This document shows positions 7,001 through 39,384 of a stretch of 58,926 nucleotides of DNA, one piece after another. Location of the stretch: NCBI GenBank assembly GCA_905331295.1, contig CAJNYD010000480.1, positions 1-58,926 on the forward strand, written 5' to 3'. This stretch comes from Rotaria socialis. Taxonomy: Eukaryota. A model generated the notes under the pieces. It saw only the letters and a list, made by a program, of their open reading frames with translations, did no database searches and had not been told where the DNA came from. The position numbers were made by a program, and so were the translations under genes. Positions within the stretch are counted from its first letter, which is position 1. Each line of letters starts with the position of its first letter.

Positions 7001-7325
7001 ATTATAAAGTTTCCTGGTCCAGTTTTTTATAAGCTTTTCAAGTGACCTTTTTAAGAGAAAACCTGTCAGGAAAGTTGTTTACGGTGAATTTTCAATTTTC
7101 AAATATAGATTCAAAGCACTAATGGAAGATCTATACACTGTGGAAATCATAGATCAATAATGTGTATTTCAGTTGAGTTTCTAATTCTTTTTTCTAATGA
7201 TTTCTGTTAAAAAAGTCTCGTTTTTGTGCCTTTCTTTTTTCTTATTAAAAAGAACATTTTTCTGAGAGTTAGAAAATTGAATAAAAATACTTCAGATATC
7301 AATATTTGAAATGTCGATAATACAT

Positions 7326-9151: not shown

Positions 9152-9618
9152 ATATTTCTATTCAACTTCATGTCTTGTTTCCAACAGTGAAAATCGCAGC
9201 TCTCTATCTTATTTGTATCAAAAGTTATTCGAAAAAGGAATCACTGGTATTCGTGTAACCGTCACACAATGGAACAAAATAGATCTTATCGAAATTCTAT
9301 TATTATAATATTAGTTGAAGTATGATCAAATAGCATAGAAAAATAGAGCATTCTTTTCTCTATCATCTTATGTAAAAAGAAACTTTTATCAAGCTTCATG
9401 TGTGGCACTGAAATGTCGTTGCCACCACTTTTGGATACCCCTAAGTATTTCACATTTTTAACCTACATCCTCATACCTGCAGCTATTACCATCAAACAGT
9501 TCTTCAACAAATAAGTTATCCTATTCTGAAAACTTTTCAATTGAATTTAGTCAAAAAATTCTGCTTTCTGTTTTTAGATTTGAAATTAATATATTTCGAA
9601 AATTCAAAGTTAATTGTG

Positions 9619-10185
9619 ATGGTGAGCAAAAGTGATTCTAATTATTTGGATCGAACCATTTCTACATGCCCAGACCGAATCCGATGCTTCCATGAATATT
9701 TATATGAAATGGAAGCTGATGGAAACGAACAGAAGCTGGCCTTAATTCTTAACCAGCAATCATTGACATATGCCGAACTAATCAATTGCACACAACAAAT
9801 TTCGTCAAGCTTACTTACAAGCTATCAAGTCAAGCCTCAGCAAATCATTTGTCTTTGTGTCGATGCGTCATTCGAAATGGTGATCGGCATTTTAGCGATT
9901 GTCACTTGTGGGGCAATATATTGTCCATTAAATTTGAACGAATCTAATGAATATCTTTTATCAGTTGTTGATCGAATTCACTCGAAGTTAGTGCTGATTC
10001 AGAAGACGACGAAAGGTGAAATATTTTCTAAAAACAAGAATATCTCTACATTTGACATTAGCAACCCTGACAGTTATCACTCGTTGGACAGTGATAATTT
10101 TCATTTACTTTCGACTATTCCACTTAATGCAAATGGTACTTGTCAGCTAACGTTCACCAGGGGTTCGACGGGTCCCTCTAAAATC
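9619..10185 (+). CDS. NRPS exon 1: N-terminal part of adenylation domain A1
   Basis: A1 motif SLTYAEL, A2-like CGAIYCPL, deviant P-loop FTRGSTGPSKI; donor gtgagt at 10186. Confidence 0.8.
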
Positions 10186-13100
10186 GTGAGTAAACTGTTA
10201 CTGAAATTCTCTATAAAACTAGATCATAGATTTTCTAATGAGAAACATCTCACACGTATGACTGCTCAGACAAGTAGGAACCATATACAGTGCAAAAATT
10301 CATAATATTCCGTTCTTTGAAGCTAATAAATTCTTAATTAGCGTGTTAAGGTACTTATTTTCCCCATATTAACAAGAAACACATACTAGATGCGTTTATA
10401 TAGAAAAAGGCTTACGTGAGCCAGTTGAGATCTCAATAGGGTACTACTACACAAGGGAAAACATCATTTTTGATAATTAATGAAAAATAACAGAATAAAA
10501 TAACATGTTTCCCACTGGATTCAAACTCACTTCAAGTTATATCCGCTCTCAGCCACTCAGCTATGTTCGATTTGATCGTGTTTCCTCTTTCACTCGTTTT
10601 CATTTCTTTAGCTATTAAGACTATTTATATTTTAACGACCGGAGCTTTTCTATTACAAATCAATTCGCCGCGATATAATAGTAGTGATATGCGTATTTTC
10701 TGTTAAATTAAGTGCTTTAAATATTGAATAGCAGCGAGCAATCAGTATTTATTCAGAGGAAACCTAAAATAGAATGACGTAAAAAGATATGCGTACCTTT
10801 TTGCAGTTTGTCAATTTTCACAAACGTCTGAGGAAAGTGTTTATGTTAAACAGTCCCAGAAAAAATTATCGGAACAAGTTCTACAAGCATACACTCTAAA
10901 AACAAAATTTCCATACCGAATGTAAAAGGGTTCAGCAAAGAGTACGAAACCTGAAAGGGTTTTTCCCTCAGCCATACGGGAAGAATCTTTTTTTTAGATT
11001 GTATAGAAGTCTTTGTAAAGAATTTGCATTGGTCAACAACATATTCAAAGTTGCATAGAATATATTATCTAATCAGGTTTTAAATATGCCACATTTTTCT
11101 GAGTCTTAATTAATGCTATACCTCAGGCAAAATTCTCAATGACCCCAAAATGCTGCTAAGTTCTCTTTAAATCACGATAAATTGAAGTGAAGATCATGAG
11201 TTTAAACTCAACTGTACCTTGATTATATCGACATTTTTCAATCTTGTCCCTCTAAACTTGAACAACAGTATCGCTGCAATATGTTACTCTTGGCACTTAA
11301 ATAAGAACATACAGAACAGAGAAAGAAGAAAAATATTAATTTAGGATTCTCGGATGCAGGTTAAAAATTTGAATCCAAGTCTCCTAGGAAAGCATTCTTT
11401 CCTGTTTTTTTTTTATGAAATAAAAATCTGATATAACAACTAATAAAAGTGGTAAACTCAATTTATAAATCCCTGTGACAGCGCCAATGCATTGCTACAT
11501 TGTATAGAAAGAAGCAAATCTATACGTTTTTCAATTATATATCAATTGGAGATCATGAGCAACAATTCAAAAGTTGAGTTTAAACTGAAAAAATTCGAAT
11601 CCAAAACATATTTCAACTGAAAATCTATCTTTTATGAACTATTTATTAAGATAGTCTTTCCAAACTTATGGATATAAATTTGAGTTTGACTTCAGTTATT
11701 TTCCAAAACAGTATAATGTCATTCATATCACAAAATTGGCATCAAGAGTCGAGTAAAATATTTCTTTTGATTGTAAATTTATATTATTAAATAAAAATTC
11801 TCACTGTAAACTATATAGAGATGACTATGAAATCAGTGATCGAATGTCATTTACAGCGTTGATAATGGCTGCCTTTTTCCAAAGTCGTTCATTGTATCTT
11901 AACGACAATAAAAAGCGATTTAGCCTTTAATCTTTTTATTTGGTCTGATAAGCAATGACTGGGAGTTGTAACTTAAGCTTTACTTCAGAGCTAACGTAAA
12001 AGTAGATTTTTTATTCAGAGAATTATTTTGTTTTTCGGAAGCAAATTTTTCATAGAACAATCGTTTTATTTGAAGTTTTTTCTAAAGTTAGAGTGCCATT
12101 CTAATCACAATTTCAAGCTGATCACTTTCGAAATCTTGAAAAGTCACTGATGTTTTTATAACACCAGTTAGCAACTAAGAAGAGATTTAATTGAATTGCA
12201 AAACCTAGATTTAGGCATGTAGCAATTGGCACTCATTATTTTTCAGTTGATTTTCGTAAATTAACACTATGGTTCTGTTTTTTTATAATAATCTGTCATA
12301 CAGTTTTTTTTTTGAAAACAATTTTACCAGCAATAATTCGATAGAAACTAGAATTATCCTGTCAGAGTTCTAATCATAATTCGAGGATCAAATCAGTCGA
12401 TCTTTCATAGAATAATGAGTTTTTATATCACAAGTAACGCTCATTGTACGGATTCCCCGATCCTTGTTTGAAAGAATGTTTTTTCATCAATACAAAGAGC
12501 AGAAAAATCCAGTTGATTGCCAATAAGATATTTGATTTAGTCGATTCGCGACTCTTATAGATAGTGGCTATTAGGATGTTTTTGCGGGATGCCAGCTTTT
12601 TCTAATTCTATTAAATGCTTCCCCATATTTTGTTGTTACTGATAAGCTAAAGTGCTATGTGAAAAAAAAACATTTTAGGTATTTACAGTTTTCAGCCGTA
12701 TTATAACAGATATTTGTGCTAACGCGTACCGTGTAAATCCAAAGTGCCATTTGAGCTGGATTTGCCTTACTATTACTTGCTTTCGGAAAAAGAAATGTAT
12801 AAATCTTTACTGTAAGGGTTATTGGAGTTTCTGATCATTTCACATATTAGTATATATATATCACTTTTGTTTTCAATTGAAAAAAATGACACTTGCTGAA
12901 ATTAAAGGTGAATAAATGAAAGAAGAACTAGATGCATCTGTAATATTGGTAAAATAGTTTCCATTTTTTTTTGGAAAATAGCAGCGAATAAGCATATACA
13001 GAGAAAAATAGATAGCGATAGAGAGTGAAAAAATATTAATACACGAAAATGAATTTTTCCGTCCATTTTATTTGTTATTTCTCGATTGTTTAGCAGTAAA

Positions 13101-16100
13101 GACCTTCGAATTAAGCCCCAAACATCTTTATCTGTGGACTTGGGTCCTGTTTAGAAAAAAGTGATTTTGTAGCTTTCTATTCCGCACAAATATAATGATG
13201 AAGGAATACTTTTGTACTTACATTCCTGGCACTTTCATATTTATTCAATGGCGTTCTTTTTCAGATTCAGCATCAAAATGTTTTATTTCCACGTCAGTAT
13301 TTCCAGAAATTCGTATGTAGAAAAGTCTTTCAGTTGTTAACCGATGTGAAATACTATTGCAATCAGCTGCATTAGCAGACTTCGCATTTTTCCTATTAAT
13401 TACAACCTTATCTTAAAGAGAATGTAGCACCACAATGTCTAGTCGTTTGTCGGTGGTCCTATGGATCGCCACTCACGGCTAGACATTCCATAGTTAATTA
13501 TCTTTCCTCTACTAATGGTCAATTTCCATACATCGTCGGGGCAATTTAGGTGTTCTTTCTTGCAAAAATGATTTTTCTTATAATACAGGAATTTAGAGTA
13601 GCAAATTTTTACATCTAAGCTTCTTATTGAATTATTTGTCAGAGTTTTTATTTGATGATACTTCTTCAAAGTAATATCTTAGTAGAATTGTTCATCAGCA
13701 AAGTCTTGGTGGAATTCTTTTGAAAACCACTCTATATCTTCTCTGAATCTTCACTTAAGTATACCTACGGTAAAACTTCAATATCGACGTCTAGTCATTC
13801 GTGGATGGCCCTACGGACTGTCACTCACGACTAGACCTACGACAGCTCTCGGTTCTTTGAACCGAATCTTTTCGAAGAACTGTTTCCAACACACAGTTCC
13901 TTTCCAGGAACTGTAGTGAATACACAGTTCTCTGTCGGGAACCCAGATCCCCAGAACAGTTCCTGCCCAGGAACCAGATCCTCCGAATAGTTCCTACCCG
14001 GGAACCGTCTCTACCCGAACAGTTCTTGGCCCGGAACTGTGTCAGCCCGAACAGTTACTTCTCAGGAACTGTGTCCACCCGAACAGCTCCTGCCCGGAAC
14101 TGTGTCAACCCAAAAAGTTCTTGGCTGGGAACTGTGTCAGCCCGAACAGTTACTTCTCAGGAACTGTGTCCACCCGAACAGTTCTTGCCCGGAACTGTGT
14201 CCACCCGAACAGTTCTTGCCCGGAACTGTGTCCACTCGAACAGCTACTTTTCAGGAACTGTGTCTTAGGGAATTTTTCGATAGGGTTCAGGTCGAGCTGT
14301 GGGGTGATTTTTCTCAAAGACAAGTGGGGTTGTGCTCGTAACAAAAGATGCTTAGAATCCTGTTTCATGAAGACAAAGTAGGTTTGACCCAACGAGAACG
14401 ATTATACACACATACGAACTTTCTCATTGTACAGAGCAAGCTCTTTACATATTTAAAAGACAACATGTCATTTTAGGCAATGGGGGCTTTGTGTCCCTGT
14501 GCTGGAAACATTAGAGTTCCTGAAAATTTTAATTTCGCCGCAACATCGATACATACGTATGTGTAACTTTCACAAAATGTACAATCGAAGGAAAATTTCC
14601 ATTCTTTCATGAATCTAGGGTGTAGTGTGTTTCCAAATAATATGCATATTGTTTGAAAAAAAACTTTTTAACGGACTAGGGTTGTGACAGTTCCGTTTTA
14701 GTTCAGATCTGATGATCTGTTTCGATCAAAGAACTGTTCGAACAGTTCAGTTCCGACCAAAGAACTGTATGACACAGATTAGTTTCGATCAAAGAACTAT
14801 ATGACACAGATCAGTTCCGATCAAAGAACTGTTCGAACAGTTCAGTTCCGATCAAAGAACCGTTCGAGCAGTTCAGTTCCTGCCGATGAACTGTTGGACA
14901 GAGTTCAGTTCCTACCGAGGAACTGTTTGGCATAGATCAGTTCCGATCAAAGAACTTTTGACACAGTTCCAAAGATCGGAACTAATATGGAACTGTCGTA
15001 GGTCTACTCACGACTAGCCGCTCCAGCTCTCGGTTTGTTTTATTAATATATTAATCATCTTTAGAACACAATATTGCATTCAGTTTGAACTCTTGACACC
15101 AAATTATTTGTGTTAGTTAATCTGCAGACCCGAAAATCTCCCTCTTATTGTCGGAAAGATGAATTCACTTCGATTTTCTCTGTAGAATAAACGCCACGGA
15201 TCATTGCATTTTAGCACATCAAACTGACTATTTCTATGTGTCACACTTATCTACATATTTAACTATTATCGATATTTTGGCCCTTAACTCATTCTGTCAG
15301 AAGACACACATATTAAAGCTCAGTAAATAGCTCTAAATTATTTTAATTAGTGATACTAATTTATTATAGATTGCAATCTCCAACTTGACGCTAGCGTCAA
15401 ATGTGAAACTTGAATTCAATTGAAAATCGAAATTTTCAACTTTCAGCTTTCAACTAATAGCAATATATGTGTGAGCCACCAATGCTGCTGGTTTAAAAGT
15501 TTGAAAATTGCAAAATTTCAAATTTCAATTGAATTCAAGTTTCAAGTTTGACAAATATGAATTTTTATTGGTTTACCGCATACTGAAATCCGATTGTATT
15601 GTCAAGCATACAAAAACGTTTAAAGATTTTTGAAGCTGCGTATAACCCGTTGTTTCAGAAAAGGGAATAAAATACAACATTTATGCAGGAAACACAACTT
15701 TTTTTAATTGTAGCTCAATATAAAAAATATCGTAATAAACGGAGCTTTCATTTTGAAAAATGTTCATTATAGGTTGAATGTTCTCATCGAAGTATTGTTT
15801 CCTGTTTGGATTCTTTATCTCAAGTCGACATGATGACTGCCAATTCGATTGTTTTGCAAGCGAGTCCGTGCTCTTTTTATTTTCACTTTGAAGAGATCAT
15901 TGGTGCTTTATATTTTGGTGGTACACTTGTTATGCTTCCTTCAAACGGTAATCGTGATGCACAATATATCTGCGCTTGCATTGAAAATCAACAAGTTACG
16001 GTTGCTTTCTTTGTTCCATTATCTATGAAAAGTTTATATGGTTATGTGCAAGATTCGTCGAATAATTATCAACCAGCTTTACAATCAATAAGAAGATTAT

Positions 16101-19100
16101 GCTCAGTTGGTATGTAAATATTGCTTCGATTAGTTTATTTTCTATAGAGACTAACTTATGATGAACTCAAATATATTAATTGTTCGCATTTATCTTTTTT
16201 ATCCTTATTCTTCGTAGTGAATCGCGACATGACTGAAATCAGTTTATGTTTGGGCAATATATTTCTCTGCACGAGTAACATCAACTTAACATTTGATTCG
16301 TAAAAAAATTAATATATTGCCATATCTATCTGGCTGCTCTAATATATTTCTTGTAAATTATGTGCAGTTTCTCGTCATCCACATTCCACCGTGAGCATCC
16401 ATGTTTGGTTTAACAGAGCTTTCTACTTTTCATTCATTAATCGACTGAAACTTACATAAAATATAGTTAATTCATAGTTATAAGCGAGCGAAGACGTACG
16501 GGTATGGATGTGGGTACAACTCTTTATTAGCCAACACACTGTAAAAAAAAAGGTATTCCACGGAACCAAAAAAGGATCTGAGCGCGGGCACACGGTCAGA
16601 TCCTTTTTAGGTTTCGTAGAAAAAAGGTTCCGTATGGAACTTCTTCTTGGTAAATGGAAAAAATGGTTTCGTACACATGGTTCCGTACGAAACCTCTGTG
16701 AAATTCTGCTAAAAAGGTTTCGTACACATGGTTTCGTATAAAACTTTCCGAATCATACTCATCTGATGAGGAACCCCTTGGAAGTGATGCATGGTTTTTG
16801 AGTTGAGCTGCCGTACATATGGTCGATTTCAGTGAGATATGGAAAACCCTGAAGGATGCCTTTTGTTAGTTCTTCATTCGAAAGTTATCATTATGTTATC
16901 AAAATTTCAGTGAAATGCCGAGGAAACCTTTGTAGCTGTCGAATTGGTTTTGAGTTTGAGCCCAGTTTGTCAGATAGATCTTAGTGAAATATAAAAAGCT
17001 CGAAATGAACGATGATTCATAAGTATTCTATAGAAAGTTGCAGACATTTTCTTGAATTTTAACCTATAGTGTGGCTGATATCAGTGAATTGAATGAGGCT
17101 ATTTCTATTTGAGATTTCGTGAAGAGAGTAATTCACTTATCAGGGAAATGCTCTAAAGGTTTTCCTCAAAAGCACACATCTTTTCCAGAGTTTTCAAAGC
17201 TCAACAATACCACTAGTCTCTAAAAAAAGGATAATGAAATGTGGTATTTTCCATGAACTTTACTATCCCTAGGAAATGTGCATTCTTGTAAAATAAACCT
17301 TTTGGGACATTTCCCTAATAAATCAATTCTTCTCTTCATTAAACCTTAAATAGAAATAGTCTCATTCAATTCCCTGATATCTGCAACACTAGCTTAAAAT
17401 TCAAGAAAATATCTGCAACTTTCTACAGAAGACTTATTAGCCATCGTTCATTTCGAGCTTTTTATATTTCACTAAGATCTATCTGACAAACTGGGCTCAA
17501 ACTCAAAACCAATTCGACAGCTACAAAGGTTTCCTCGGCATTTCACTGAAATTTTGATAACATAATGATAACTTTCGAATGAAGAACTAACAAAAGGCAT
17601 CCTTCAGGGTTTTCCATATCTCACTGAAATCGACCATATGTACGGTAGTTCAACTCGAAAAACCATGCATCACTTCCAAGGGCTCCCTCTTTAGACAAGA
17701 AAGAGAAAATATTGTTTACCTCAAACCCGTGAATAAGTCTTCCTAAAAAAAAAACCCGACAAAAAGCATAAACTTACTTCCATATCAAGATTGCGAACTC
17801 GTCCACAGGAAACAAATAACCAGTTATTTTGACCAATAAACTAACATGAAAAGTAGCATCTCAACCAAGTCTGAAACAGAAAAACAATCATTTGTAAAAC
17901 AAAATAGATTAACTTCTAAATCGAAAAAAGGAATCGATCATGAACGGAAATAAGACTATATTTAAAGAAGAAAACTTACATTTAAGCTTCCATTGAATAT
18001 TCATCCGTGTCCGGTTAATATAAGCATTAAACGAATAGAATAGTTGCTAAATCTTATCACTATGTGTTATATTTACCTAGATTTGCTGGGAGTAGAATAC
18101 GAGCTAGAATTTTCTCCGCTATTCGCACGAAAGTGGCATCCTAGTTAGTTGTTTTTGAGACAATCCTAAATAAGAAAAAAGAACAGCAACTTATATTGTA
18201 AGATTCAACTTACGATTAAATGAATTATTCCCATATACCTAAAATATTTAAAAAAACACCAATTCCTTATATCATATTAAATTTGCAATTCAATTGACCA
18301 GAGAGACATTACCTGCGTATTCATAATTACATGTGACGTATCGTAGAAGATAAAAGAACGATCATACTTGGAAAGATATCCATAATTAATCAATCGATTT
18401 TGGAGATACCACTAACCGGCTCTACCATTCAGCTATCGCATCCATGTGATCGATAAAACGATGAAGGATCCCGATTCCTCGACCACAATAAACTAGTCTA
18501 AACTTCGATCAAAATTAAGATCGGAGTTGAAATGAAATGTCTAAATTTACAGCACTCGATTTTTTGATGGACCCAATATCTGACCAATGGGCGCTCGGAT
18601 GGAAAAAGTAATGACGGATTCGGATTCCTTGACATTGATAACCTATTTCGAACTTCAATCCGAATTGAGATCGGAGTTGAAATGAAATGTCTAATTTCAC
18701 AATCCTTAATTTTTTAATAGACCCAATATCTGACCAATGGGAGCTCAGATTGAAAAAATGTTAACAGATTTAGAATCCTCGACATCGATAGCCTAGTAAT
18801 GTTTTATATGACTTAAATCACATTGCGAAAATATAGAATCTGGCTTCAAGCCAGACCATGTTTCGAAAAATGGTTCAGCATTTAAAAAATTGATGCAGGA
18901 CGGATCCTTTTCAAATATCCGCAACTGTTGAGGATCTGAGATGGGTCTGTAAACTAGCCTGAACCCTGGATGGTTAATTAATGAGCGAATGAAACGTTAA
19001 AAGGTTCAGTATCTTGGCTAAAGCCATAACTGGTTCCCTATACTTTGTACGGATCTATTGGTGGTTCCCCGAACTATTTCATGGTGTCGTATACAGTGTA

Positions 19101-22100
19101 CGAAAGCAATAGGTGTTTCACTACTTATTTTGAGGTTTGGTATACATACTTCAAAACTACAGATAGTTTCCAAAGCCAGATATATGATTTATGTGAATTA
19201 TGTAACACGATTGATGGTTCCGTATATCTGTTACGAAACCATGCATGCCTCTATAAGGGTTGCAAAAGTATCGCATTCACGTTACGAAACTATTACTTAC
19301 TTCGAAAGGCATCAATTGGTTTTGGATATCTTTTGCGGAACCATTAACGGTTTCGTTCAGTTGTCTGAAGGTTCAGCAGACATACTACGAAACTTTTGGC
19401 AGTTTCATATAGTATCTAAAAGTTCCGGAGAGACTCTACGAAACCATTCTCAGTTGTTTAAAAGCTCTAATCGTTCCGGACATGTTTCACGAAACTACCC
19501 ATGGTTTTGCAAAAGATATACTGAACTATTATATCATTTACGAAAGTATAAATGGTTTCGTGTGATGCATGCCGAACCTTTGGATGCTTCGCGAAACTTT
19601 CCATTGATTCGTATAAGATACACGAAACCTTTCCTTGTTAAACGAAACTCTCATTAGTTTCGTAAGACATAAAACAGTTCAGCGTAGATCGTACGAAACT
19701 ATTCACTGTTTCATAAGTGACACAAAGGTTCAGTATTTCTTTGACGGAGCCGGAAATAGTTTTGTAGAATGTGTCCAGAACCTTTATTGTACTTTCGCAA
19801 CCCTGAATGGTTTCGAAGAACCTATGCGGAACTTTTAAATGCTGTTCAGAACTCCCAATGGTTTTGTATGAAGAATACGAAACTAGCAAAAGTTTGGTTC
19901 ACACTCAACGAAACTTCTAGATGGTTTCGTAGTGAAACTTCAAAACCCTTTACAACTTTCGGAACTTAAAAAGGTTCTTTATGGAAGTTCCGAAACTATT
20001 TTCATGCCAAGGAACTTAAAATCGTTTCGTAAAATAGTACCAAACCTCCAAAGTTCGGTAGAACACTTATTTTTTTTACAGTGCACCCGCACCCTCAAGA
20101 TAGATTTGATTTGTATCAAACATGCGTTTGTTTGTTTTTAGGTGATATAATGGAAGTCAAGGCAGCAGAAATTATTCGTCATCTGCATTCTGATTGTAAT
20201 CTATATAACATTTATGGATCTGCTGAATGTCCATTAATTACTACTTACCATGTCAGTAATGATGAACTTTTTTCTTCGAACAAAATCGATTCCTTATCTA
20301 TTGGGCAACCATGCCCCAATATAGACTATGTCATTATCGATAAGAAACAGCACTTAGTTTGTCCTGGTGAAATCGGCGAACTGTGCATTAATAGTCCAGG
20401 ATTGTTTGCTGGTTATTTTGAACGTGAAAATTTGATGAATGAACTGAAATTTCAAGTCAATGATGCTATATTTTATAAAACGGGTGACATGGTAAGAATC
20501 GATCAAAACCATAGCCTTCATTTTGTGAAACGATCTATTTTGGAATTAAACTTACATGGAAAATGTGCTCGAGAGAAAACAGTAGAACGTACAACCCCGA
20601 AGACATTCAACGGCATCGATAAGAAATTGAATTTACAATACGCTCCATCGTGGAAATCTATTGCAGAGCTGCCCATCACTCTTCCTGAGGAAGTACAACA
20701 AATGAAATTTCATCGGATATCAAATATTGTTGATAGAGGTATGCTTCTTGGTCATTCTCTTGACTTTTTCGTTTGAAAAAACAGTTCAGTAGGAATCGAC
20801 GAGAAATAGAATGAATAGAAGATAACTTTCGAAGTGTCGCTCATTAAAATGGTACAGTTCAATTCTTACTCGTAATTTCGGGTTTTCGTCCAAAAAAAAA
20901 ACATTAATATAAGAATAGGATAGTCTGACATCATTTTTAAGAACAACTCATCGACAAGTTTTTAAATCATACCACCCTAAACTGTTGTCAGCCCGCTACA
21001 TCATTTTAAACGAACATTGCGGCATACCTATTAACGACCGTGTGAATAGAACAGTACTTGGTGTAATATATCGCGATCTACTGTAAGATAATCGCGTCAT
21101 GATATCAAGCGAGACCAGGAGGCTTCAAGCAATACAATTTCTTGAAGTATAATCTATTTCAGACGCTACACGTTTTTAAACACTGAAAAAGTGCATAACA
21201 ATTTCTTTCAATCTTGATAATTTTGATATGATCGTGGTACTACTCCTGATCATCACGCTTTGTTAAATTCTATCAAAGTTTCTCAGCATTTCTCATGTGA
21301 ATTTGAATATATATTGGTGAGATTCTACTGGTCGCTGAAAATTTGTTTTATTGAATGATCTTACTCCAGTATTAGAAGGCATAGCTGTGCAAGTACGTTC
21401 TTCTTTTGTTTGTTATCTAAGGCCGTTTAGTGCTGAAGAAAACAAGTTTTGATTAACGATGGTTTGTGTAGTACATATCATTTTTACTAGGTCCATAATT
21501 TGAATTAAGTTTTCTCACTTAAAGTTAATGTTAAGCCTTAATTGATTCATTCCTACTATCCATACCGACACTAACAATACCAAATTTAGCTATTCGAGCT
21601 AAAATATGATCCCATGCTATTTGTAGGGGTCAAACCTATTTCGTAAGAAGTACTGCCTGGCTCTGACTTGGTTTTAGGTAGCTCTATAAAAATTGTTCAT
21701 GAATTTATGCTTTCTGATGGAAAGAAGCCTAACTTTCCCTAGGAGAAGATCGAGGCGTTTCTGTTTTTTTTATTGATTGCACATAAGTTATAGAAGCATT
21801 CGCATTCAAAAAGTACATTCTTCAAAAATCACTATCTGTATCTTTTAGCTCCGGCTTCTTCTGCGCAAGCTCGCATCTGGCTTGACGAACGTATACGCTT
21901 CAATCCGGAAAACCCAGAAGTTGCCATTTATAACATGTCATTTCCGTATCGAATTGCTCCTGGGAGTAGCATTCAAATAAAACAATTGCGGAAAGCATTG
22001 CAAATTATAATTTTGAAACATGAATCACTGCGTACAGCCATCTTCTTTGATTCCAATGATAATATATTGATGCAGAAAATTGTTGATGCTACGAATCCAA

Positions 22101-28100: not shown

Positions 28101-31100
28101 GTGAAAAATATAATTTATTTCAGCTGTATGAGTATGCTAGTTTTTATTAATAGTTGAAGTACAGAATGATAATTGCTTTTTGAAACACAATGATCTCATA
28201 ACTTGTGACTGATTTTTCTCAGCTACCAAAGTTTAATTATTAGTCTCGATTATATCGGTAATCACTATAGAAAATCATTTTTTCCTTAGGTGAGACGATA
28301 TTTCCCAAAACCCTATCACAGCTGGCTGCTCATCTGAATTTCCAGAAAATTCGTATTGAAAATTCGTACGGACCTGCCGAGTGCACGATAGCTACGTTTT
28401 ATCATCGAATAACAATGAATAATATTGAAGAAAAGCGGATTCCGATTGGAACACCTTTTCCCAATACAATAATTCAAGTATTAGATGAATTCCACCAACC
28501 AGTAATACCTGGGGCTGAAGGGGAATTGTTTATTGCGGGCCTTCAACGATTTTTGGGCTACTATCGTCACGATGAACTGAACAATCAAGCTCTTTTTAGT
28601 TCTTATTATTACTCGGGAGATCTTGTTCGAATTGATACAAATGGACTCCTTTACTATATAGGCCGAAAAGATCATCAAATCAAGCTAAAAGGGCAACGCA
28701 TTGAGCTTGGCGAAATCGAACGATGCTTACTTGGCGTATCTTCACAAGTGACAGCTTGTATTGTTGTGAAATGGAGGGATAACTATCTTGTGGCCTATGT
28801 CCAAAGTCAGAGTATCGGAGAAGAACAACTCCGTCAACATTGCCATTTTCACCTTCCACCTTATATGGTTCCATCGATCATCATTATACTTGATCAGTTC
28901 CCATTGACTGTTAATGGGAAAATAGATCGCAAGCAACTTCCTTCGCCTGATTTTTCGTCAACAACTCTATCCTGCGAAGTCTCGATGGATGCACCACGCA
29001 ATCATGTAGAGGAAAAAGTCCATGCTTTGTGGTGCCAAGTAATAAAAACTAATATCGTTCATATTCGTATTACAGCTAACTTTTTTACTGTCGGAGGTCA
29101 CTCTCTACTTCTAACAGAGCTCTACTACCGATATCAATCTGCTTTTGGATTCGATAGTCAAACAATTGGTATCACACCATTTCTCAGGCAAGCAACTATT
29201 GTTGAACATGCAAAGATACTTGAAAACATCAAAGTTAATTGTTCCGACTCAACAACATGGTTCCCATTAAATATCAATGAAGGTAATATCTATTTTGAAT
29301 TTGCTACATCAGCATAATTATTGACTGTCATTAAGGTATTGCTTCATTTGCGCAAGAGCGAATCTTCCTTGATGAATGTAAACGCTTCACAAACCGTGTC
29401 GCCGTTTATAATATTGTATCCGTATGGTATGTTGTGTCAGGTGAACTATCACTGGTACGCCTTCAAGAATCTATCCAATCATTGCTGATCAAACATAAAA
29501 TATTAGACACTTCCTTATTTTTCAACAGTAGTAATAGTGAGCTTGTACAGCGCACAAACTTTACACAAGTGCTATTGAATATCGAAAATCCAAAGACCTT
29601 CTTAAATGACGAAGAACTTCACTCAATTATTCGGCGATCAAGTACTGATTCTAATCTTTTCGATTTAGCTAGTGGTCGTGTATTTTATTGTGAACTTCTT
29701 CGAAATCAATCATCAGAAAATAGTAGCAACTCGATTGCTAGATTTATGAGTCCCGGGGATGCATTCCTGTTTGCTTTTCATCATGCTGCAGTTGATCGAA
29801 CCTCCTTGTCATTCTTCTTTGATGACCTTTGTGAGATCTACAACTGCAATACATCAGTGTACACCAATGTGAATGCATTTCAGTACTTAGACTATTCAGT
29901 GCACGAACGAACACTTGATACGAGTTCATCGCAGCAATTTTGGCGGTCCCAAATGAATGATTACGATTGGAATCGTCACATCACATTACCAGCTGATAGG
30001 CACCGTCTATCGACTGACGAACGATTGGGATTAGGCTCTATTGCAGAATTTTCATTTGATAATGAGCTTTCGCAACGCCTTCTGGCATATTGTTCATCTC
30101 ATCAGATGACATTGTTTCAACTTGGTCTTGCCATATTCACTGCTTTTCTATTCAAACTCATCAGTGAACAAACCGAACTGTGTGTCACTTGTCTACATGC
30201 TAATCGATACAAGCAAGAATTGAGCAAGATGATTGGCATGTTTGTCTCCACATTACCCTATCGCATTCCGTTCAATGCTACCGATTCTTTCCAACAACTC
30301 GCAGAAAAAGTGCGAGACCAGTGTCTATCAGTTCTTGAGCATTCACATTATCCACTTCAGCACATTTTGGCTGACTCGCAAAAACAACAATTGTCAAACA
30401 GTTTCCTAGAGACTGCATACGACCTTTTAACTGTGACTTCGGACGATGACAAGTTGAATTTTGATGGAACTGAAGCCAAGCATGTTTCATTATCTGAAGA
30501 ATATGAAGCAACCAAGTTCGATTTCATGTTAATGGGCTTTTACAATCCATCGGCATCACGCAATATAATTTCATTTTCGCTCATCTGTGCAAGTGATCTC
30601 TTCAACCAATCTACCGTTGAAATATTGGCTCGTCGGTTTTCATCAGTTACCAATCAATTGTTTGGGTCAGAATTGTTGTCATCTCCGTCAAAATCGCTCT
30701 ATCAACTATCTATCATGCTACCTGAAGATTTGAAAGCCATCGAAGCTTTGAATTGTAGTAGCCACAATACAAAACAACTTCTCAGCAACAACATTGTCGA
30801 ACGATTCAATCAAAGGGCTTCAATGCATCCACAAAAGATGGCAGTTGAACTCGATAATCAATCTCTCACATATGGCGAACTACTTTATCACGCACAGTAT
30901 CTTGCTCTTCGTCTTCTTGAGAAGTACAATATCAAGCCAGGTTACATTATTTGCCAGTGTATGGAACGCAGTATATCAATGGTAAGTTAATTCAAATGAG
31001 GAGAATTTTTTCATATACAACGTGCACTTTTCATAATTAGGTTATTGGTATTATGGCAATCGAGATGTGTGGAGCAATCTATTGTTCATTATCTCCTGAT

Positions 31101-34100
31101 GATCCACAGGAGCGTCTCCAAAAAATCATTGAAAAAACGCAACCTCATCTTGCACTTTTCCATGCCACAACACTAGATAAAATGAATCTGTTGGATACCA
31201 AAATACAGATCGAGTCGTTTGATAATACCTATGATTTGTCTGGTGGCATCAATCTGGATAGACTCTCAGCTAATATGATTACAGGCGAAAGTATAGCTTA
31301 TGCTATCTTCACAAGTGGTTCAACTGGTACACCAAAAGCAGTTAGTTAAAGCTTTGCCGTCTTAAGATAACATTCTGCTATTTATCCTTTTTAGGTCCGA
31401 ATAAGACATCAGAATTTCATTAGTTGCATCGATTCTCTTGTTAGTATTGGTCTATTCAGTGAAGAAGATATAATAACGCAAATGGCTCAATGCTCATTTG
31501 ATGTTCATACACAAGAAATCATTGGAACTTTGATCATTGGTGCGACTATCATTATGCTGCATCCTCATGGGACCAAAGATCTAGAATATCTTATTAGTGA
31601 ACTAAGACAAAAACAAGTTACGTACATCCAAATGGTACCAGCATTCATAAACTTTCTTATAGATAATTGTCAATATCACGATAACCTGGTATTGCCCACC
31701 ATTCGCACAATTGACATCGGTGGTAAGAGTTGTATTGAAAGATTATTGTGTTTTATATTTCTTTTTTTTGTAAGGAGAAATTGTTTATACATCATTAATT
31801 CGTAAATTACGACCTCTATTTGATAAAAATACTCACGTATACAACTTATACGGACCAGCTGAGACAACAGTAGATTGTACATGCCATTACATAGAGATCG
31901 AAAGCGATGGGCAAACTGTTCCAATCGGACAACCACTTCCACACTGTGAATGTTTTCTTGTTGATCAGTATTTACAGAATGTTATTGTTGACCAAGAAGG
32001 TGAATTGCTTGTTGGTGGTTGCAGTGTCTTTGCCGGTTACCTTGGACGAGAAGACTTAACATCAAAAGCGCTAGTTAACATAGATGGGCAACTTTTTTAT
32101 CGTACAGGGGATCTTGTGCGGCTAAGCAAGAATAGTCTTCTATATTATGTTGGACGAATAGATTACCAAATTAAATTACACGGTCAGCGCATAGAAGTGG
32201 CTGAGATCGAACAATGTGTGATCAAAGCACCAGGTCAAGTACGAGGTTGCGTGGTTATCAAGTACGGTAATCACAATCTAGTGGCGTATGTTGAAGGTAG
32301 TAGTCTCAAAAAAGAGAAATTACGTGGCCATTGTCGTTCTAATCTTCCATCGTTTATGATTCCTTCGGAATTCATTCTTCTCGACCGATTCCCATTGAAT
32401 GCGAATGGAAAAATAGATCGTTCACAATTTCCTACACCAAACTTATCAGTATGTTCAACTGATCCAGCAGAACAGCATCAAGAACCAATCGGGGAACTCG
32501 AAATACTTATCCATAAGCTATGGTGTGAACTTCTAAATTGTTCTCGAATCTCAAGGTACGAGAACATATTCAGTATTGGTGGTCATTCATTACTGCTAAT
32601 GAAACTATATCAACATTATAAGAGATCATTCGAATTCGATTCGCACATTCTCGGAATCGCTCAGTTTTTTCAGCATCCAACTCTGGCTAATCATGCTGGT
32701 CTTATTGAACAAGCAACTAAAAAACAATGTAATGACTTTAATTCTTCATTTAAATCACATAGAAATTCCGGTATAAAATCTATACACTCATAGAGATTAA
32801 ATCTTTTTGAGTATGTTTTATTATAGGAAGCACATTGTCCGCACCAGAGACGCTGGTAACATGCGATGTAAATAGCCGTTACAATCCTTTCCCATTGACC
32901 AATATCCAGCAAGCCTACTTGATTGGACGTATTGGAGTTTTTGAACTTGGCCATGTGTCTTGTTATGGCTATGAAGAATATGATTGCCCAACATTAAATA
33001 TAGAGAGATTTGAAACAGCGCTGAATCAAATTATCCAACGACACGAAGCACTACGACTCATCTTTCCATCGGAAAGTGAACAACAGATCCTTGAACATGT
33101 GCCATATTATAGAATTCATATTGTAGATCTCAGGGATCAATCAGAAGAATATGTATATAACCAGCTTGAAATAGAGAGAAATCGTCTTTCCCATCAAGTC
33201 TTGCCTGCTGAAAAATGGCCATTGTTTAATTTTCAAATTACGCTTTGGGATTACCAACATCTGCGCCTACATGTCGGCTTTGACGCTCTTCTAATGGACT
33301 GGACAGGTTATCATTTGATGTGGTATGAATTATGTCTACTTTATCTAAATAATAATACTATTTTACCGACGCTAAGATTTTCTTTTCGTGACTATATTTT
33401 GGCAGAACAGGAACTTCGCAAATCGTCCAGATACGAAAATGATAAAAAATATTGGTTGAATCGCTTGAAGACATTTCCTTCTGGACCAAATATGCCAATG
33501 AAAACGTTACCGAGTCAAATAGAGAATCAAAAGTTTGCCCGCCTTTCGAAATTTATAGACGTACACAGCTGGAATATGATCAGAGAACGAACGATTGGGC
33601 TCAAACTGTCTCCAACCGGCGTCTTAGCAGCTGTGTATGCAATAATACTGGCAAGATGGAGCCAACAAAATCATTTTTCTTTGAATTTACCTATTTTCAA
33701 CAGAATACCTATGCATCCAGATATTGACAATATTATTGGTGATTTTACGTCCGTTGTTACACTAGAGATCAATTTAGAGAAAAGTGAACAAACAACTTTT
33801 GTTGAACAAGTGCGCACAATTCAGACGCAGTTATGGGAAGACTTTGATCATGCAAGTTTCAGTGGAGTTGCTTTCATCAATGAACTTAAGCGATCTAATC
33901 ATAGTCAAGAAATACTTCTACCAATCGTGCTCACGTGTGTTATAGATGCCACTAGTGATGATCGAAATAAATCTATGTTTCTTGCTGAACATCTTTTTCA
34001 CGATCCACCAATATATGCTATAGCTCAGACACCGCAAGTATTTCTAGATAATCAAATCTATGAAGAAATAGACGGGAGACTAGGAATTGTGTGGGATTAT

Positions 34101-37100
34101 GTTGATGAGTTATTTCCAACAAACATGATAAATGATATGCACAATGCATTTATCGATCTTCTTCATCATCTCGCATCATCGGATGAAAGTTGGCATCAGC
34201 CCTACAAATTTTCTCTTAGTCTCAGTCAGCAAGAACATCGGTTTGCATTTAATTCTACCAAATGGGATACTCGTAGACAGGATACTCTACTTCATGAATT
34301 AATTATCGAACAAGCAGAGCGCACACCTCATGCTTTAGCTGTTCTATCATCACGTAGAACTTTTACTTATCGAGAATTGATGAGCCGTGTCTATTCTATG
34401 GCAAATTATTTACATCAGCAAATGGCGACACATCATCAATTTATCGCAATTCTAATGGAGAAAGGTTGGGAACAAATAGTAGCTTGCTTGGCTATTTTAA
34501 TGTGTGGAGTTGCTTATTTACCACTTGACATTGATTCTCCTGACGACCGAATATCTTGTTTGATCGAAGAAAGTAATGTAAAAATAATTCTTACACAATC
34601 TAATCAACAGCGCAACTTCGACCATTTGTCTTGCATATCAGTGGATACATTTCTGACTGAGGACTGCTATTCTACCACATTTTTCGTAAAAAATCAAAAG
34701 GCAACTGATTTGGCATATGTTATTTACACATCTGGTTCAACTGGAAGACCAAAAGGAGTTATGATTAGTCATGAATCTGTTATCAACACAATTCTTGATA
34801 TCAATTCTCGACTGGATATTAATGACACTGATCGAATATTTGCGTTATCTCATTTGAACTTTGATTTGTCCGTTTATGATATATTTGGAGCCTTGAGTGC
34901 AGGTGCAACTGTTGTCATACCCGATCATCACGATTACAAAAATCCAAGTCATTGGTATGAATTAATTCTTGAACATCGGGTAACAATTTGGAATAGTGTA
35001 CCAATGTTGATGCAAATGCTAGTCGAATTTTTGCATGATAAAAGTAGTAGCAACCAACTGCGACATATTTTATTAAGTGGAGACTGGATACCAATATCCT
35101 TGCCAAAATCAATAAAAACAACATTTGGTAATGACGTCATAATTACAAGCTTAGGTGGCGCTACAGAAGCTTCCATTTGGTCTATAGCTTATACACTACC
35201 TGAAAATATACCAACCGAATGGAAATCAATTCCATATGGAACACCACTACGTAATCAGCATTACTATGTTTATGACTCTGATCTAAGTGATTGTCCTGAA
35301 TGGGTCACTGGTGAATTATATATCGGTGGTATTGGTCTGGCCAAAGGCTATTGGAAAGATGAGAAAAAGACCAATGCTAGTTTCATTACCCACCCTCACA
35401 CTAGTGAACGGCTTTATCGAACTGGAGATTATGGACGTTTCGTTCCAGATGGCTATATTGAATTTATTGGAAGAACCGATTTCCAAGTGAAATTACACGG
35501 ATATCGAATAGAACTAGAAGATATTGAATATAATCTCCAACAGCATCCAGATATTAATCAAGCATTCGTAACTTTCGATAAACAATCACATAATCTAATT
35601 GGTTATGTTTTACCTTACAACCATGCTTCTCAACAACACCACTACAATATATCAGAAAATTTTATCAAGAATTCAAATGAATGTACCGGTTTAAAATCTG
35701 CAAGACATAACTATTTGAATTCAAAAACTTTAAAAAAGAGATTCTACTTGAGAAGACCCGAGCAAACCGAAGAGTTGGTAGATACTTATTTCGCTCGCAA
35801 AAGCTATCGACAGTTTACAAATCAGCCGATTACAATTTTAGAAGTTGAAATGTTATTAAAATCGATTATTCCATTAAATAAACCCACATTTCCATCGTCT
35901 CCAACATTGTGTGACTATGATAGTTTGAGTCGACTTCTGGCTGCTTTAACTAGCTTAATACTTCCTGACCGAACTTTACCAAAGTATCGTTATGCATCCG
36001 CTAGAAGTCTCTATCCTATACAAGTTTTTGTTGAATTCTCTTCAAAGATAGATAATATAGAGCCTGGTTTTTATTATCATAATCCTGATGAACACTCTCT
36101 CGAGAATATAGGTGAAGACAACTATGATTGTTCGTATGATCATCTCAACAATGACAATGGTATTCGATTTCATTTGGTTGGAAGACAATCGGCTAGTCTG
36201 TCTTTATATGTTGAAGAATCAGTCTCAGCATTATGCTTACTAGAAACTGGATATATTTTTGGTTTATTAGAGAAAGCAGCTCTTACCATGGGATGGCACT
36301 TTGAACAAGTATATAGCGTTGATAGAGAAAAGTACTCGCCATTCATAAATTTGCATACAAATGATACACATTCTTGTTTCTCTCTTAACTGTTCAGTTGT
36401 GATGGATGAAGAAACCATGGAGCCAAAACTTAGTGATTTTCCTTCATGTTATCTTTGTTTTCGATCTTCATACAGTCAAAATGTTGATAAAAATCAATGG
36501 TATGTGCTCGAAAATCATACAGCAAAACTAAAAAAACTTTCTTGCTACTCTACGAAACATAATCTCTCGCAACATAAGTCACTTGTTTTAACTGAAACTG
36601 ATGCCATATTTATGAGTTGTCAAGTTGCTTTATTTATTGTTAGTCAAGCGAACCAATATATAGAAGCAGGAAAGATTGGACATTTTTTGATGGATGCAGG
36701 AATTCAAAAGAATGACACGGACAATAATGGTTACAATATTGGAATGTGTCCCATCGAGACTTGTTCTAATTTATGTGATAAATCAGTACTAAATACATTA
36801 GATGAAATTCTTACTTTCAAACCTCATTCCAAGCTATTGCATACAATTTTTATTGGAAAAATAGGTGAAGATCAGAAAAGAGACAAAATAATATCGAGTT
36901 CAAATAAGGAAATACATTTGATACAAATGTTACAAAAATATCTAGCCACCAAGTTACCTTCCTATATGATACCGTCTTTATTTGTCAAATTAAATGAGAT
37001 CCCTATCAGTTCGAACGGAAAAGTTGATAGAAAATGTTTACCAAAGCCAGACTATTCAAAATTACGATATTCTGATACTACTTCTATGATAATTTCTAGT

Positions 37101-39384
37101 CCACTTGAGACACAAATACAATCGATTTTTTCTCGCGTTCTTGGTAAAGAATCTCCAGCCATAAATGTATCGTTCGGTCAACTGGGAGGTACTTCATTAG
37201 ATGCAATAAGAATTGTGTCAATAATTCGAGAAGAAATTCATGAAAACGTTAACATCGGTATTTTGTTGTCGAATCCATCAGTGCACCAATTGGCTGAAGT
37301 CATTAACAGATTACCGGTTAGAAAAGAAGTTTCTGCAGATGCAATGCCAGATCCGTCAGAAGAAAAACGAATTCAACCGAAACCATCCGTGTTAGTTGAA
37401 ACTTGCGGGATTTTGTTTCTCGCATGCCAGTGGTTATTTCCGTTCTGGATGACACATACGCTCCCGAATATGTATTTTCTTCTTTTTGTGCCTATCTTTC
37501 ACCTAATATCATACGTCGCGTTTCGATTGATTCTATTTGGAAACGATCAAATTCAGAATGAAACTGATAATTTATATTCAGGGAGATATTATCGTTGGTG
37601 GTTTTTAGATCGTCTTTGGTCAATCAACAATACATATTGGTTACAGCATCTACTAGGTACACAATTTTACAATTATTATTTGCGACTATGTGGTGCCAAA
37701 ATCAGTTCTCATGCTCATATTTATACAACAGCAATTGATGCTCCATGGTTACTCGAAATTGGGGATTCGACGTACATTGGCAGCGAGACATTATTGTCTG
37801 CTCTGTCATTGTATGATCAATCATATAGACTCCAAAAGATTAGCATTGGATGCAATTGTTCCATTGGCACTCGTTGTGTATTATATGAAGGGGTTAAGAT
37901 GTCAGATGGTGTGTTTATAGAGCCTATGACTTCCATAACCGGTAATATCCTTCCTTCCGCTATTGGTTTATCAATCGAGAGCAGAGCTCTAGCATGGCAT
38001 CACATAATCTATCAATTTATTTGTCTGGTGTGCCTTGGCTATATTCATTTAATTCTTCTGAATGTAACCCTCCTGGTTTATACATCCTATGCACCACTCA
38101 AGATAGCACTGCCTATCTATCTTGCCTTTATTTGGCTTTTTTGGAGCCTTTCTGGCCTTTTCGTAGTTATAGCTTTGCTTAAGTTTGCTGTAGGTTCAAC
38201 AAAACCTGGTCAGTATAGAATAAATTCCTATTACTATTTACATAAATTGTGGCTTCGCCAATTGATTATATCGTCTTTTCAACATTCTATAAAAGTCTTA
38301 CCCGTATATAGTACACTATCAAATTATTTACTTCGGTGGTTAGGCGCTGATATTGAAGATGATGTGAAATTAGTAGAATTGCAACCACTATTGTATTTTC
38401 CATCAAATCTTCTCAAACTTAATCATGGCGTAACAACATTTTCTGCAGTTATGTTCGTTCCGCTAGAGTTGATGCAATCAGGACACTGTTTTCTTGACCA
38501 AATAGTTCTTGGACAGGCAGCGAATCTTGGAAACTATTGTACAATTATGCCGGGTACAAAGCTTCGTGAGAACAAGGTCGTCGGATCTTTGACTTTAATA
38601 AACAAAGATACAAAATACTTTGATACTAGTAAGGTCTTACTAGGTATTCCAGGTCGTTCCGTATCTTTTGCAATCACCAATGATGCACTTTACAGCGACA
38701 ATTCATTATCATTGGAGTCACCTTGTCTTTTCGATCTGTTCGCTGCATGTATGTTTTTCTTTATAGGCAAGAGTATTTTAATTGTTATTTACTGGTTTCT
38801 GGCGGCTCCTACTGCACTTTTTGCTCAAATAACTTTATTCTGTGTACTGCAACGCTATAGAACATTCAATCAAAGGATACTTGGAAAGTTTGCGTATTCA
38901 GAAATAGTCAATCCTATCACATCACTTATCAATAGCATTACAGATGATTTTGATCGTTTTATAGCACCATTCATTTGTCGGACACAATTTCTTGTTTTTC
39001 TATATCGTGCGTTAGGTGCTCGAATTGGTCACGATGTTATTTTATCAGATAGACAATGTCTGACTGATCCTCAGCTTGTGACCATTGGAGATCATGTCCG
39101 TTTCAACACGGGAGCTTGCATTCAGGTAACATTTCATCTCACTATACCATCATAGGAATTATTGTTTATTTTCTTTGAAGTGTCACACATTTGAACAGCG
39201 TGTCTTCAAAGTAGCACCAGTCACAATTCATCATTCAAGTGTTCTCATGAGTGCTTCATTGGTGTTCCCTGGATCAACACTCGATGGACGAAACCGTCTT
39301 TTTCCGCTTACATTGGTATTGAAAAGTGATCGGCTACCTTACAATACTCACTGGTCAGGAGTTCCAGCTCAACAAATACAATAA
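9619..39384 (+). CDS. Multi-exon non-ribosomal peptide synthetase, ~4,848 aa: A*-C-A-T-C-A-T-Cy-A(Ox)-T-Pls-like terminal domain
   Basis: Hand-assembled exons: 9619-10185, 15773-16109, 20142-20738, 21849-22412, 22473-23817, 26072-26111, 26176-26506, 28290-29282, 29336-30981, 31041-31340, 31395-31722, 31775-32770, 32827-39125, 39181-39384. All introns are GT-AG with matching phases; total 14,547 nt. Splicing restores split motifs (YIDYS, CLLFTSGSTGTPKM, GGE, IQCHTFE). The start codon is uncertain because of an in-frame acceptor at 9577. Confidence 0.88.
13832..15006. mobile_element. hAT-type non-autonomous element in NRPS intron 1
   Basis: TIR TAGACCTACGACAG...CTGTCGTAGGTCTA; perfect 8-bp TSD CTCACGAC; ~30-bp subterminal tandem repeats (GAACAGTTC/GAACTGTG). 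Confidence 0.88.
15396..15552. repeat. Palindromic MITE-like hairpin
   Basis: GTCAAA..TGAAACTTGAATTCAATTGAAA is the inverted match of TTTCAATTGAATTCAAGTTTCA..TTTGAC. Confidence 0.6.
15773..16109 (+). CDS. NRPS exon 2: A1 substrate-pocket region
   Basis: Acceptor ttatag, then VECSHRSIVS...SPCSFYFHFEEIIGAL...RRLCSVG; donor gtatgt at 16110. Confidence 0.8.
16537..20083. mobile_element. CACTA/EnSpm-like non-autonomous element filling most of NRPS intron 2
   Basis: TIR CACTGTAAAAAAAA...TTTTTTTTACAGTG, 2-bp TSD CA, and many GGTTTCGTA/TACGAAAC subterminal repeats. Confidence 0.82.
16775..17682. repeat. ~900-bp foldback (long inverted repeat)
   Basis: Arms ~16775-17190 and ~17270-17682; outer portion nearly perfect, inner portion diverged. 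Confidence 0.88.
20142..20738 (+). CDS. NRPS exon 3: C-terminal part of A1 (A5-A7 present, A8-A10 degenerate, no T domain)
   Basis: YNIYGSAEC, GELCINSPGLFAGY, FYKTGDMV; no GRxDxQVK and no GGxS carrier motif before the next C domain. Confidence 0.8.
21849..29282 (+). CDS. NRPS module 2 (C-A-T), exons 4-8
   Basis: C domain: SSAQARIW, KHESLRT, HHSLFD, IGMFVNAIP. A domain: FTSGSTGTPK, SFDIHV, NSYGPAE, YYSGDL, GRKDHQIKLKGQRIELGEIE, PLTVNGKIDR. T domain: NFFTVGGHSL. Confidence 0.9.
24090..24491. mobile_element. Probable MITE in NRPS intron 5
   Basis: Imperfect TIR CAAGGGGAAAAAATGATTT / AAATCAGTTTTCTCCTTG; internal GAAATCA repeats. Confidence 0.5.
24911..25511. mobile_element. CACT-terminated MITE in NRPS intron 5
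   Basis: CACT...AAATGTGTCGCAT / ATGCGACACATTT...AGTG, TA flanks, and TGTCGC/GCGACA subterminal repeats. Confidence 0.68.
29336..32770 (+). CDS. NRPS module 3 (C-A-T), exons 9-12
   Basis: C domain: SFAQERIF, HHAAVD, IGMFVSTLP. A domain: YAIFTSGSTGTPK, SFDVHT, NLYGPAET, YRTGDL, PLNANGKIDR. T domain: NIFSIGGHSL. Confidence 0.9.
32827..37320 (+). CDS. NRPS module 4: heterocyclization (Cy) domain, Cys-specific A domain with embedded FMN oxidase (Ox), and T domain
   Basis: Cy: FPLTNIQQAYLIGR, DALLMD (DxxxxD), IGDFTS, QTPQVFLD, WDYVDELFP. A: YVIYTSGSTGRPKG, FDLSVYD, TIWNSVP, LLSGDW, SLGGATEASIWS. Ox: RKSYRQF, KYRYASARSLYPIQ, PGFYYHNP. A10: SSNGKVDR. T: LGGTSL. Confidence 0.92.
37380..39384 (+). 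CDS. NRPS C-terminal Pls/PosA-like membrane domain (three repeats of hydrophobic helices plus hexapeptide/beta-helix-like segments)
   Basis: Three repeats YLRLCGAKIS / LLRWLGADIE / LYRALGARIG, each after hydrophobic stretches. The end QCHTFEQRVFK...VTI...LVLKSDRLPYNTHWSGVPA resembles the C-terminus of the Pls-type NRPS terminal domain. Confidence 0.82.

Follow-up and report, generated by a model that had tools for sequence, protein, structure and literature searches.

NRPS genes of bdelloid rotifers are proposed antifungal defences, and how an asexual animal diversifies them is an open question. The stretch of Rotaria socialis DNA analyzed here (58,926 nucleotides, referred to below as the window) carries one such gene, and raises the question of how many bacterial sources contributed to it and by what route its modules were joined. 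The original prediction, made from the sequence, was that modules 1-3 had expanded inside the host after intron gain, and that an intron-free Cy-A-Ox-T-Pls unit had been acquired separately and fused by exon shuffling. Genes of this family were reportedly described in bdelloids in 2008. The accessible parts of a recent study (Nowell et al., 2024; PMC11258130) describe a family of bacterial origin with tens of copies per genome and ABC transporter genes located beside NRPS clusters in A. ricciae, and its supplement records tBLASTn matches in A. vaga to heterocyclisation (6) and NRPS_term (12); another study (PMC3846280) mentions, in its accessible part, some 50 copies in A. vaga that have introns in common. 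The gene family and the presence of heterocyclisation and NRPS_term domains in bdelloids are thus already known. In the openly available literature searched, bdelloid NRPS were not found to have been analysed for their module junctions or for a second bacterial source. What this locus adds is a probable mosaic history involving two sources, with joins that are mostly internal to exons and one junction that is possibly intron-mediated.

Gene model, intron map and the remains of module 1

The predicted NRPS gene has 14 exons (9619-39384, + strand) and 4,848 codons with no stop inside, and its 13 introns are all of the GT...AG type. The domain order is A1(dead)-C2-A2-T2-C3-A3-T3-Cy-A4(Ox)-T4-Pls-like (Table 1). 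The public R. socialis model P0403, which is itself a prediction, agrees with the rebuilt protein at every position from residue 305 onwards (0 mismatches) and covers introns 3-13, and a second predicted model (P0400) carries the agreement back to residue 209, covering intron 2. Exon 1 is absent from all 8 public models aligned, so that intron 1 (10186) is known from the rebuilt model alone. The only possible RNA run matched covers repeats and no NRPS exon, and is uninformative on expression. The best relatives are bdelloid rotifer proteins, the A, T, and C domains were all found, and a 100% protein match labelled R. socialis belongs to a cluster with 13 records of this species. The gene is a member of the known bdelloid NRPS family and lies in an animal genome with spliceosomal introns. 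Bacterial contamination was rejected in view of the introns and the 13 R. socialis records, and an assembly artefact was rejected because one DNA contig, from a run that is possibly the source of the window itself, covers 25485-39500 with 2 differences.

Phase-0 introns occur one codon past the P-loop lysine of A1, A2, and A3 (10186, 26112, and 31341), and phase-1 introns within the G preceding D/E of the same domains (16110, 26507, and 31723; called G-GE introns below). The probability of two intron sites being common to three A domains by chance is about 7e-12. A4 carries no intron at the sites matching either of these. All 9 of the splice sites named in the original prediction are present with the correct phases, and exon 13 (32827-39125) does measure 6,299 nt; the Poisson probability of its being intron-free ranges from 8e-5 to 6e-3, depending on how the host introns are counted. 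Module 4 therefore lacks both A-domain introns and lies in this one exon as predicted, apart from its end: the Cy-A-Ox-T-Pls stretch as a whole is not intron-free, as intron 13 (39126-39180) splits the Pls-like domain.

The three introns proposed to mark every module boundary (20739, 29283, and 32771) are all in phase 1, but the first of them does not separate modules: it is the intron found between the tandem C domains of bdelloid NRPS. Introns 20739 and 29283 occupy the same position, six codons ahead of the Q in the C-domain start motif; since they are the same C-start intron, the three phase-1 boundaries amount to at most two independent events. The agreement in phase is weak evidence, as chance easily explains two events.

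Module 1 itself is degenerate. The Asp of the amino-binding site is missing from A1, which has neither a C-terminal subdomain nor a T domain behind it. In an alignment by eye, the C-tail remnant in exon 3 matches the end of P0153 as well as the C-C junction in 9 bdelloid proteins, and the ends of three read-through proteins (P0153, P0304, and P0387) stop at this same site. The read-through proteins, which appear to have been called on unspliced DNA or mis-spliced, give the introns of relatives through protein ends that enter introns, not through DNA, and for those without a species name, the assignment to bdelloids relies solely on similarity and placement in the trees. Exon 3 closes with what remains of a lost C domain, so that intron 20739 is the C-C intron located behind an exon-internal deletion; this deletion would have killed module 1 at a later stage.

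Table 1. Coordinates of the features discussed, as positions in the window
Feature	Position	Strand	Remarks
Degenerate A1 (exons 1-3)	9619..20593	+	P-loop altered
Introns 1 and 2	10186-15772, 16110-20141	+	Repeat-swollen
Apparent remnant tail of deleted C domain	20648..20738	+	In-frame fusion behind A1, putative deletion scar inside exon 3
Phase-1 intron at C-C junction (host C-start intron)	20739..21848	+	
Host-type module C2-A2-T2 (exons 4-8)	21849..29282	+	P-loop intron 26112, G-GE intron 26507
Phase-1 T-C intron	29283..29335	+	63 codons past T-domain GGxS; same register in 9 read-through proteins
Host-type module C3-A3-T3 (exons 9-12)	29336..32770	+	Introns 31341, 31723
Phase-1 T-Cy intron, candidate 5' graft site	32771..32826	+	64 codons past GGxS
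Probable second-source piece, heterocyclisation (Cy) domain and A4	32874..37067	+	Azoline-oxidase-like insertion (Ox) at ~35700-36902
Putative 3' junction in A-T linker, inside exon 13	37040..37100 (approximate)	+	Inferred, not sharply resolved
Host-type T4 and Pls-like membrane domain	37095..39384	+	Split by phase-0 intron 39126-39180
ABCB1-type ABC transporter gene, tail to tail with NRPS	42410..50473	-	Exons seen; possible exporter

Three private introns (22413, 23818, and 30982) come in addition to those named in the original prediction. Introns 1, 2, and 5 are long because of the high-copy repeats inside them; introns 1 and 2 contain a 940-bp near-palindrome (16762-17695) and several tandem arrays (13938-14969, 18501-18795). 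The public models disagree by 13 residues at intron 5, where the gene is broken in the model of one assembly. The complete P-loop of A2 is held by a 40-nt micro-exon (26072-26111). Just upstream of exon 1, a 3.4-kb high-copy element with no long ORF (6083-9447) is flanked by 194-bp terminal inverted repeats that are 95% identical, and is likely to be a non-autonomous DNA transposon. At 54484-55381 (+ strand), a tandem array consists of units of about 82 nt; in each, a micro-exon of about 30 nt, flanked by AG and GT(G/A)AG, is combined with a ~52-nt intron. The 7 units seen form one open frame, and the array looks like a gene with duplicated symmetric micro-exons.

Two groups of A domains and the T-Pls end

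In the A-domain tree (IQ-TREE, 47 rows hand-picked from a larger set), A1-A3 fall inside a 15-row bdelloid clade (support 100/99), and A4 belongs to a separate 7-row bdelloid clade (100/100) nested among bacterial Cy-linked A domains. A FastTree analysis of 206 rows gave the same split of A1-A3 vs. A4, and a single bdelloid A clade was rejected (p=3e-5). The A-domain phylogenies thus place A1-A3 with host paralogues and A4 with bacterial sequences, as the original prediction had it, and A4 did not nest among A1-A3 in any of the A trees. Best identities to non-bdelloid proteins amount to 44% for Cy and 52% for A4, as against 23% for Pls, 24-27% for C, and 29-33% for A1-A3.

The three host-type A domains share only 32-39% identity, other species contain closer relatives of each of them, and the AU test rejected a clade restricted to A1-A3 (p=0.009). 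Because of this low identity and the lack of a clade of their own, they are best regarded as old paralogues of the family which were brought together, rather than as local tandem copies. The idea of an expansion after intron gain holds insofar as the shared introns are older than the spread of host modules, but not as regards copies made within this gene.

The two separate A clades, the occurrence of T-Pls ends behind many host A domains and the shared introns are the firm elements of this picture. We think it probable that this bdelloid NRPS is a mosaic, formed when a Cy-A-Ox piece of a second bacterial lineage recombined into a position between an intron-bearing host module and the T-Pls end that is usual in the host family, so that exon 13 would be chimeric. 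Among the bdelloid-type proteins with a Pls-like end, many of which are near-copies from one species (Adineta steineri), so that counts are not independent, the preceding A domain is of the host type in 39/42 and of the Cy type in 3/42; with the same proviso, the 38 modules of the A4 type are followed by C (16), Cy (1), or Pls (3), or by the end of the record (18). T4 scores with host Pls-linked T domains in both halves, and so do the T domains of 3/3 other Cy-A-T-Pls proteins. The T domains behind internal Cy-A-Ox modules are split: the first helix is nearer to bacterial T in 20/22 (by a margin of less than 3 score points in 8 of these 20), the second half is host-type in all 22, and 21/22 have an insertion at the join. 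Rows missed by the motif search were dropped from this comparison, which covers 26 of the 38 modules along with the present gene. In P0129 and P0413, a bacterial-like T is kept ahead of Cy, behind a host A.

The alternative contained in the original prediction, namely that Cy-A-Ox-T-Pls came whole via the phase-1 intron 32771 and that T-Pls then spread to host modules, strikes us as unlikely. In the bdelloid Cy-A clade, the Cy-A part of this gene does branch off first with both models (100/99 and 100/98), the next branch, with two more T-Pls proteins, is also Cy-A-T-Pls, which an original T-Pls would lead one to expect, and intron 32771 lies within one codon of the host T-C register. The T-Pls tree has no resolved root; the T-Pls of this gene groups with those of P0001 and P0004 (93/91), and its position as first branch was not rejected (p=0.06). 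The four Cy-linked T-Pls ends do not form a single clade, however (rejected at p=2e-5): on these trees P0187 appears as an independent Cy-A to T-Pls join, and T-Pls would have been joined to Cy-A at least twice. Host-type genes as strongly diverged as P0033 and P0034 already end in T-Pls, the distance to the bacterial counterpart is much greater for Pls than for Cy-A, and the internal copies retain an ordinary bacterial-like T helix after A. Cy together with Pls occurred in 0/316 non-bdelloid proteins (Cy with Ox in 39, Pls in 9), a limited candidate set in which the absence counts as moderate evidence, and the architecture was seen in none of the three bacterial loci, so that no bacterial homologue with the entire colinear order emerged. 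In a search with long proteins, likewise in a limited candidate set, Pls was present in 7/13 matches, all 7 of them bdelloid. In A. vaga P0375 (C-C-A-T-Cy-A-Ox-T-C-A-T-Pls), T-Pls stands behind a host A and the protein end reads into the same Pls intron. Accepting a separate bacterial origin for Cy-A4-Ox while leaving T-Pls out of it, we consider that T-Pls was probably not part of the graft and that exon 13 is probably not one acquired unit.

A domains sort by substrate; the AU test alone is therefore no proof of two transfers. This leaves room for a single transfer of a multimodular bacterial gene with C-A-T and Cy-A-Ox-T modules, whose A domains had split before the transfer and whose Cy module gained no introns through slow evolution or by chance. 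The bacterial relatives of A4 (P0145, P0325, P0328, and L001-L003) do have both types of modules. Their non-Cy A domains nevertheless fall outside the host A clade in the case of the closest relatives, which argues, though not conclusively, against a single multimodular donor; the host C and A domains have diverged much further from those of bacteria; and the split T domains mark a two-source join. We regard a single transfer as improbable. As regards the sources scanned, the metagenomes yielded one locus (L001), which reads as bacterial, and the genomes two bacterial loci, both with Cy-A-Ox-T and, in the available DNA, without a match to Pls; no relative was found in the viral contig scans, and a search among representatives brought up mainly long bacterial NRPS and few additional relatives.

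Loss of the module 4 introns via recombination with a reverse-transcribed copy, a 3'-biased process to which the position of the intron-free stretch at the 3' end of the gene would be suited, is very improbable and largely refuted, as the most 3' intron (39126) is retained, A4 belongs to the other clade, and its unnamed, ORF-like relatives cross the P-loop site (10/10) and the SGD site (11/11 of those covering it) without any insertion. Since the A4-type relatives cross both sites in this way, the lack of introns is a property of the whole Cy-A clade.

Several features of the relatives are also worth recording. P0001 and P0004 are Cy-A-T-Pls proteins without the Ox insertion, which was likely lost in them, because the present gene and its closest bacterial relatives have it. 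Many copies among P0007-P0031 (Adineta steineri) show a methyltransferase Pfam match and extra residues past the Pls-like domain. A group of mostly plant-labelled proteins (P0056, P0058, P0060, P0062-P0064, and P0066) carry oxidoreductase, A, T, Pls-like, and catalase-like Pfam matches, and their Pls-like domain is 20-29% identical.

Junctions between the two kinds of modules

In 9 read-through relatives, the T-C intron lies at codon 63 past GGxS, and intron 32771 lies at codon 64; the probability of such a match to the host register arising by chance was estimated at about 4% (3 of roughly 75 slots). The G-GE intron was recognized in P0146, and the Pls intron in P0001, P0004, P0187, and A. 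vaga P0375; none of these read-through proteins from other loci showed the P-loop intron. In P0001 and P0146, the linker between T and Cy is so short that it could not accommodate an intron, and the join of P0129 is at A-T: with these other 5' joins, a route through an intron is not general. A possible intron read-through before Cy, at the start of P0138, was discarded, as this stretch is similar to the last part of the bacterial-like T of P0129 and P0155.

At the other end of the piece, the C-terminal remainder of A does not sort by class, so that the 3' join is placed only roughly. Cy-A-Ox is not bordered on both sides by introns of one phase: its 3' junction falls within exon 13, and the next intron is in phase 0. 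Because of this location, the 3' join cannot be due to exon shuffling. Of the fusion by exon shuffling that had been proposed, what is left is the 5' side, where intron 32771 is compatible with intron-mediated grafting; it does not extend to the exon-internal 3' junction, nor does it hold as a general mechanism. The data fit spliceosome-assisted grafting at one junction at most.

The mosaic history which we favour would have unfolded as follows. The family would go back to an early bacterial NRPS that entered bdelloids, acquired the C-start, P-loop, G-GE, and Pls introns, and expanded. A second bacterial NRPS would then have supplied an internal T-Cy-A(Ox)-T piece, before the sampled Rotaria and Adineta copies split, and this piece would have stayed intron-free. 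DNA recombination, with joins in A-T linkers or T domains, may have linked it to host genes repeatedly. In the present gene, the join at the 3' end would fall within exon 13, in the A-T linker, and that at the 5' end would coincide with the host T-C intron, a possible graft site, or lie immediately behind it. Whether two routes were used at once, namely DNA recombination at the A-T and T-domain sites used by engineers and docking at a phase-1 T-C intron, a site available only to eukaryotes, with one junction of each kind in this gene, is a tentative proposal to which we give rather less than even credence.

Predicted product and comparison with known systems

Module 4 combines a Cy domain, an A domain of predicted cysteine specificity, and an insertion modelled with an FMN oxidase fold, as thiazole-forming Cy-A-Ox modules do. 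The A4 pocket residues, read by eye from the motifs, match what we take to be the cysteine code; the A2 and A3 pockets match no assignable specificity code. The insertion in A4 gives a weak match to TIGR03605, and its structure model resembles BmdC, ThcOx, and McbC. In the oxidase motif, Arg is found here vs. Gly in many relatives, and other bdelloid copies are also variable at this position. The terminal domain scores 120.8 bits against TIGR02353, which is below the curated cut-off of 423 bits. In the model of its first 612 residues, beta-helix repeats alternate with three helical hairpins, and the hydropathy scan detected 4 segments in the domain, as compared with the six membrane helices between three acyltransferase-like domains of Pls/PosA synthetases; Foldseek gave no match to this model at E<=0.001. 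According to these models, A2 and A3 would load two residues, Cy-A4-Ox would add a cysteine and make a thiazole, and the membrane-bound Pls-like domain would release the product by acyl transfer, after which the neighbouring ABC transporter might perhaps export it. The product is likely to be a short thiazole-bearing peptide released at the membrane.

The locus suggests that at least two bacterial sources were mixed after transfer, leaving scars that can still be read, and it provides intron and T-domain markers with which the whole family can be tested. It also predicts a thiazole-bearing animal peptide, with a Pls-like membrane domain as its releaser.

The closest system is the bdelloid family itself, which includes the A. 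vaga NRPS-like proteins ACD54728.1 and ACD54724.1; the present gene has in common with this family a bacterial origin, introns shared between members, varied domain order, and ABCB1-type neighbours. Unlike A. vaga P0375, where Cy-A-Ox is internal, the present gene has a terminal Cy-A-Ox directly joined to T-Pls, and the nearest Cy and NRPS_term matches, which are 8 kb apart in the accessible A. vaga supplement (PMC11258130), are separated by 4.5 kb. As regards bacterial NRPS recombination at XUT sites I and IV, the accessible part of the preprint (bioRxiv 10.1101/2022.12.02.518901) describes joins in the A-T linker or next to FFxxGGxS and T halves with different histories, which resemble those of the bdelloid genes. 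The bdelloid case differs in that it occurs in an animal genome, combines an old intron-bearing family with a later piece, and often involves an insertion in T. The epsilon-poly-L-lysine synthetase Pls (TIGR02353), according to the accessible part of PMC8117764, likewise has a T domain and, behind it, three helical hairpins in alternation with acyltransferase-like repeats of the beta-helix type. The Pls-like end of the present gene differs from it in being only 23% identical, far below the cut-off, and in ending a multimodular line with C and Cy, whereas Pls itself is a single A-T module without C and Cy domains. Lastly, thiazole-forming Cy-A(Ox)-T modules and their oxidases (bacillamide BmdB/BmdC, ThcOx, and McbC) resemble module 4 in their Cy motifs, in a pocket which we presume from the code to be of the cysteine type, and in the oxidase-fold insertion; unlike them, the module described here is embedded in a spliced animal gene and is predicted from sequence and model.
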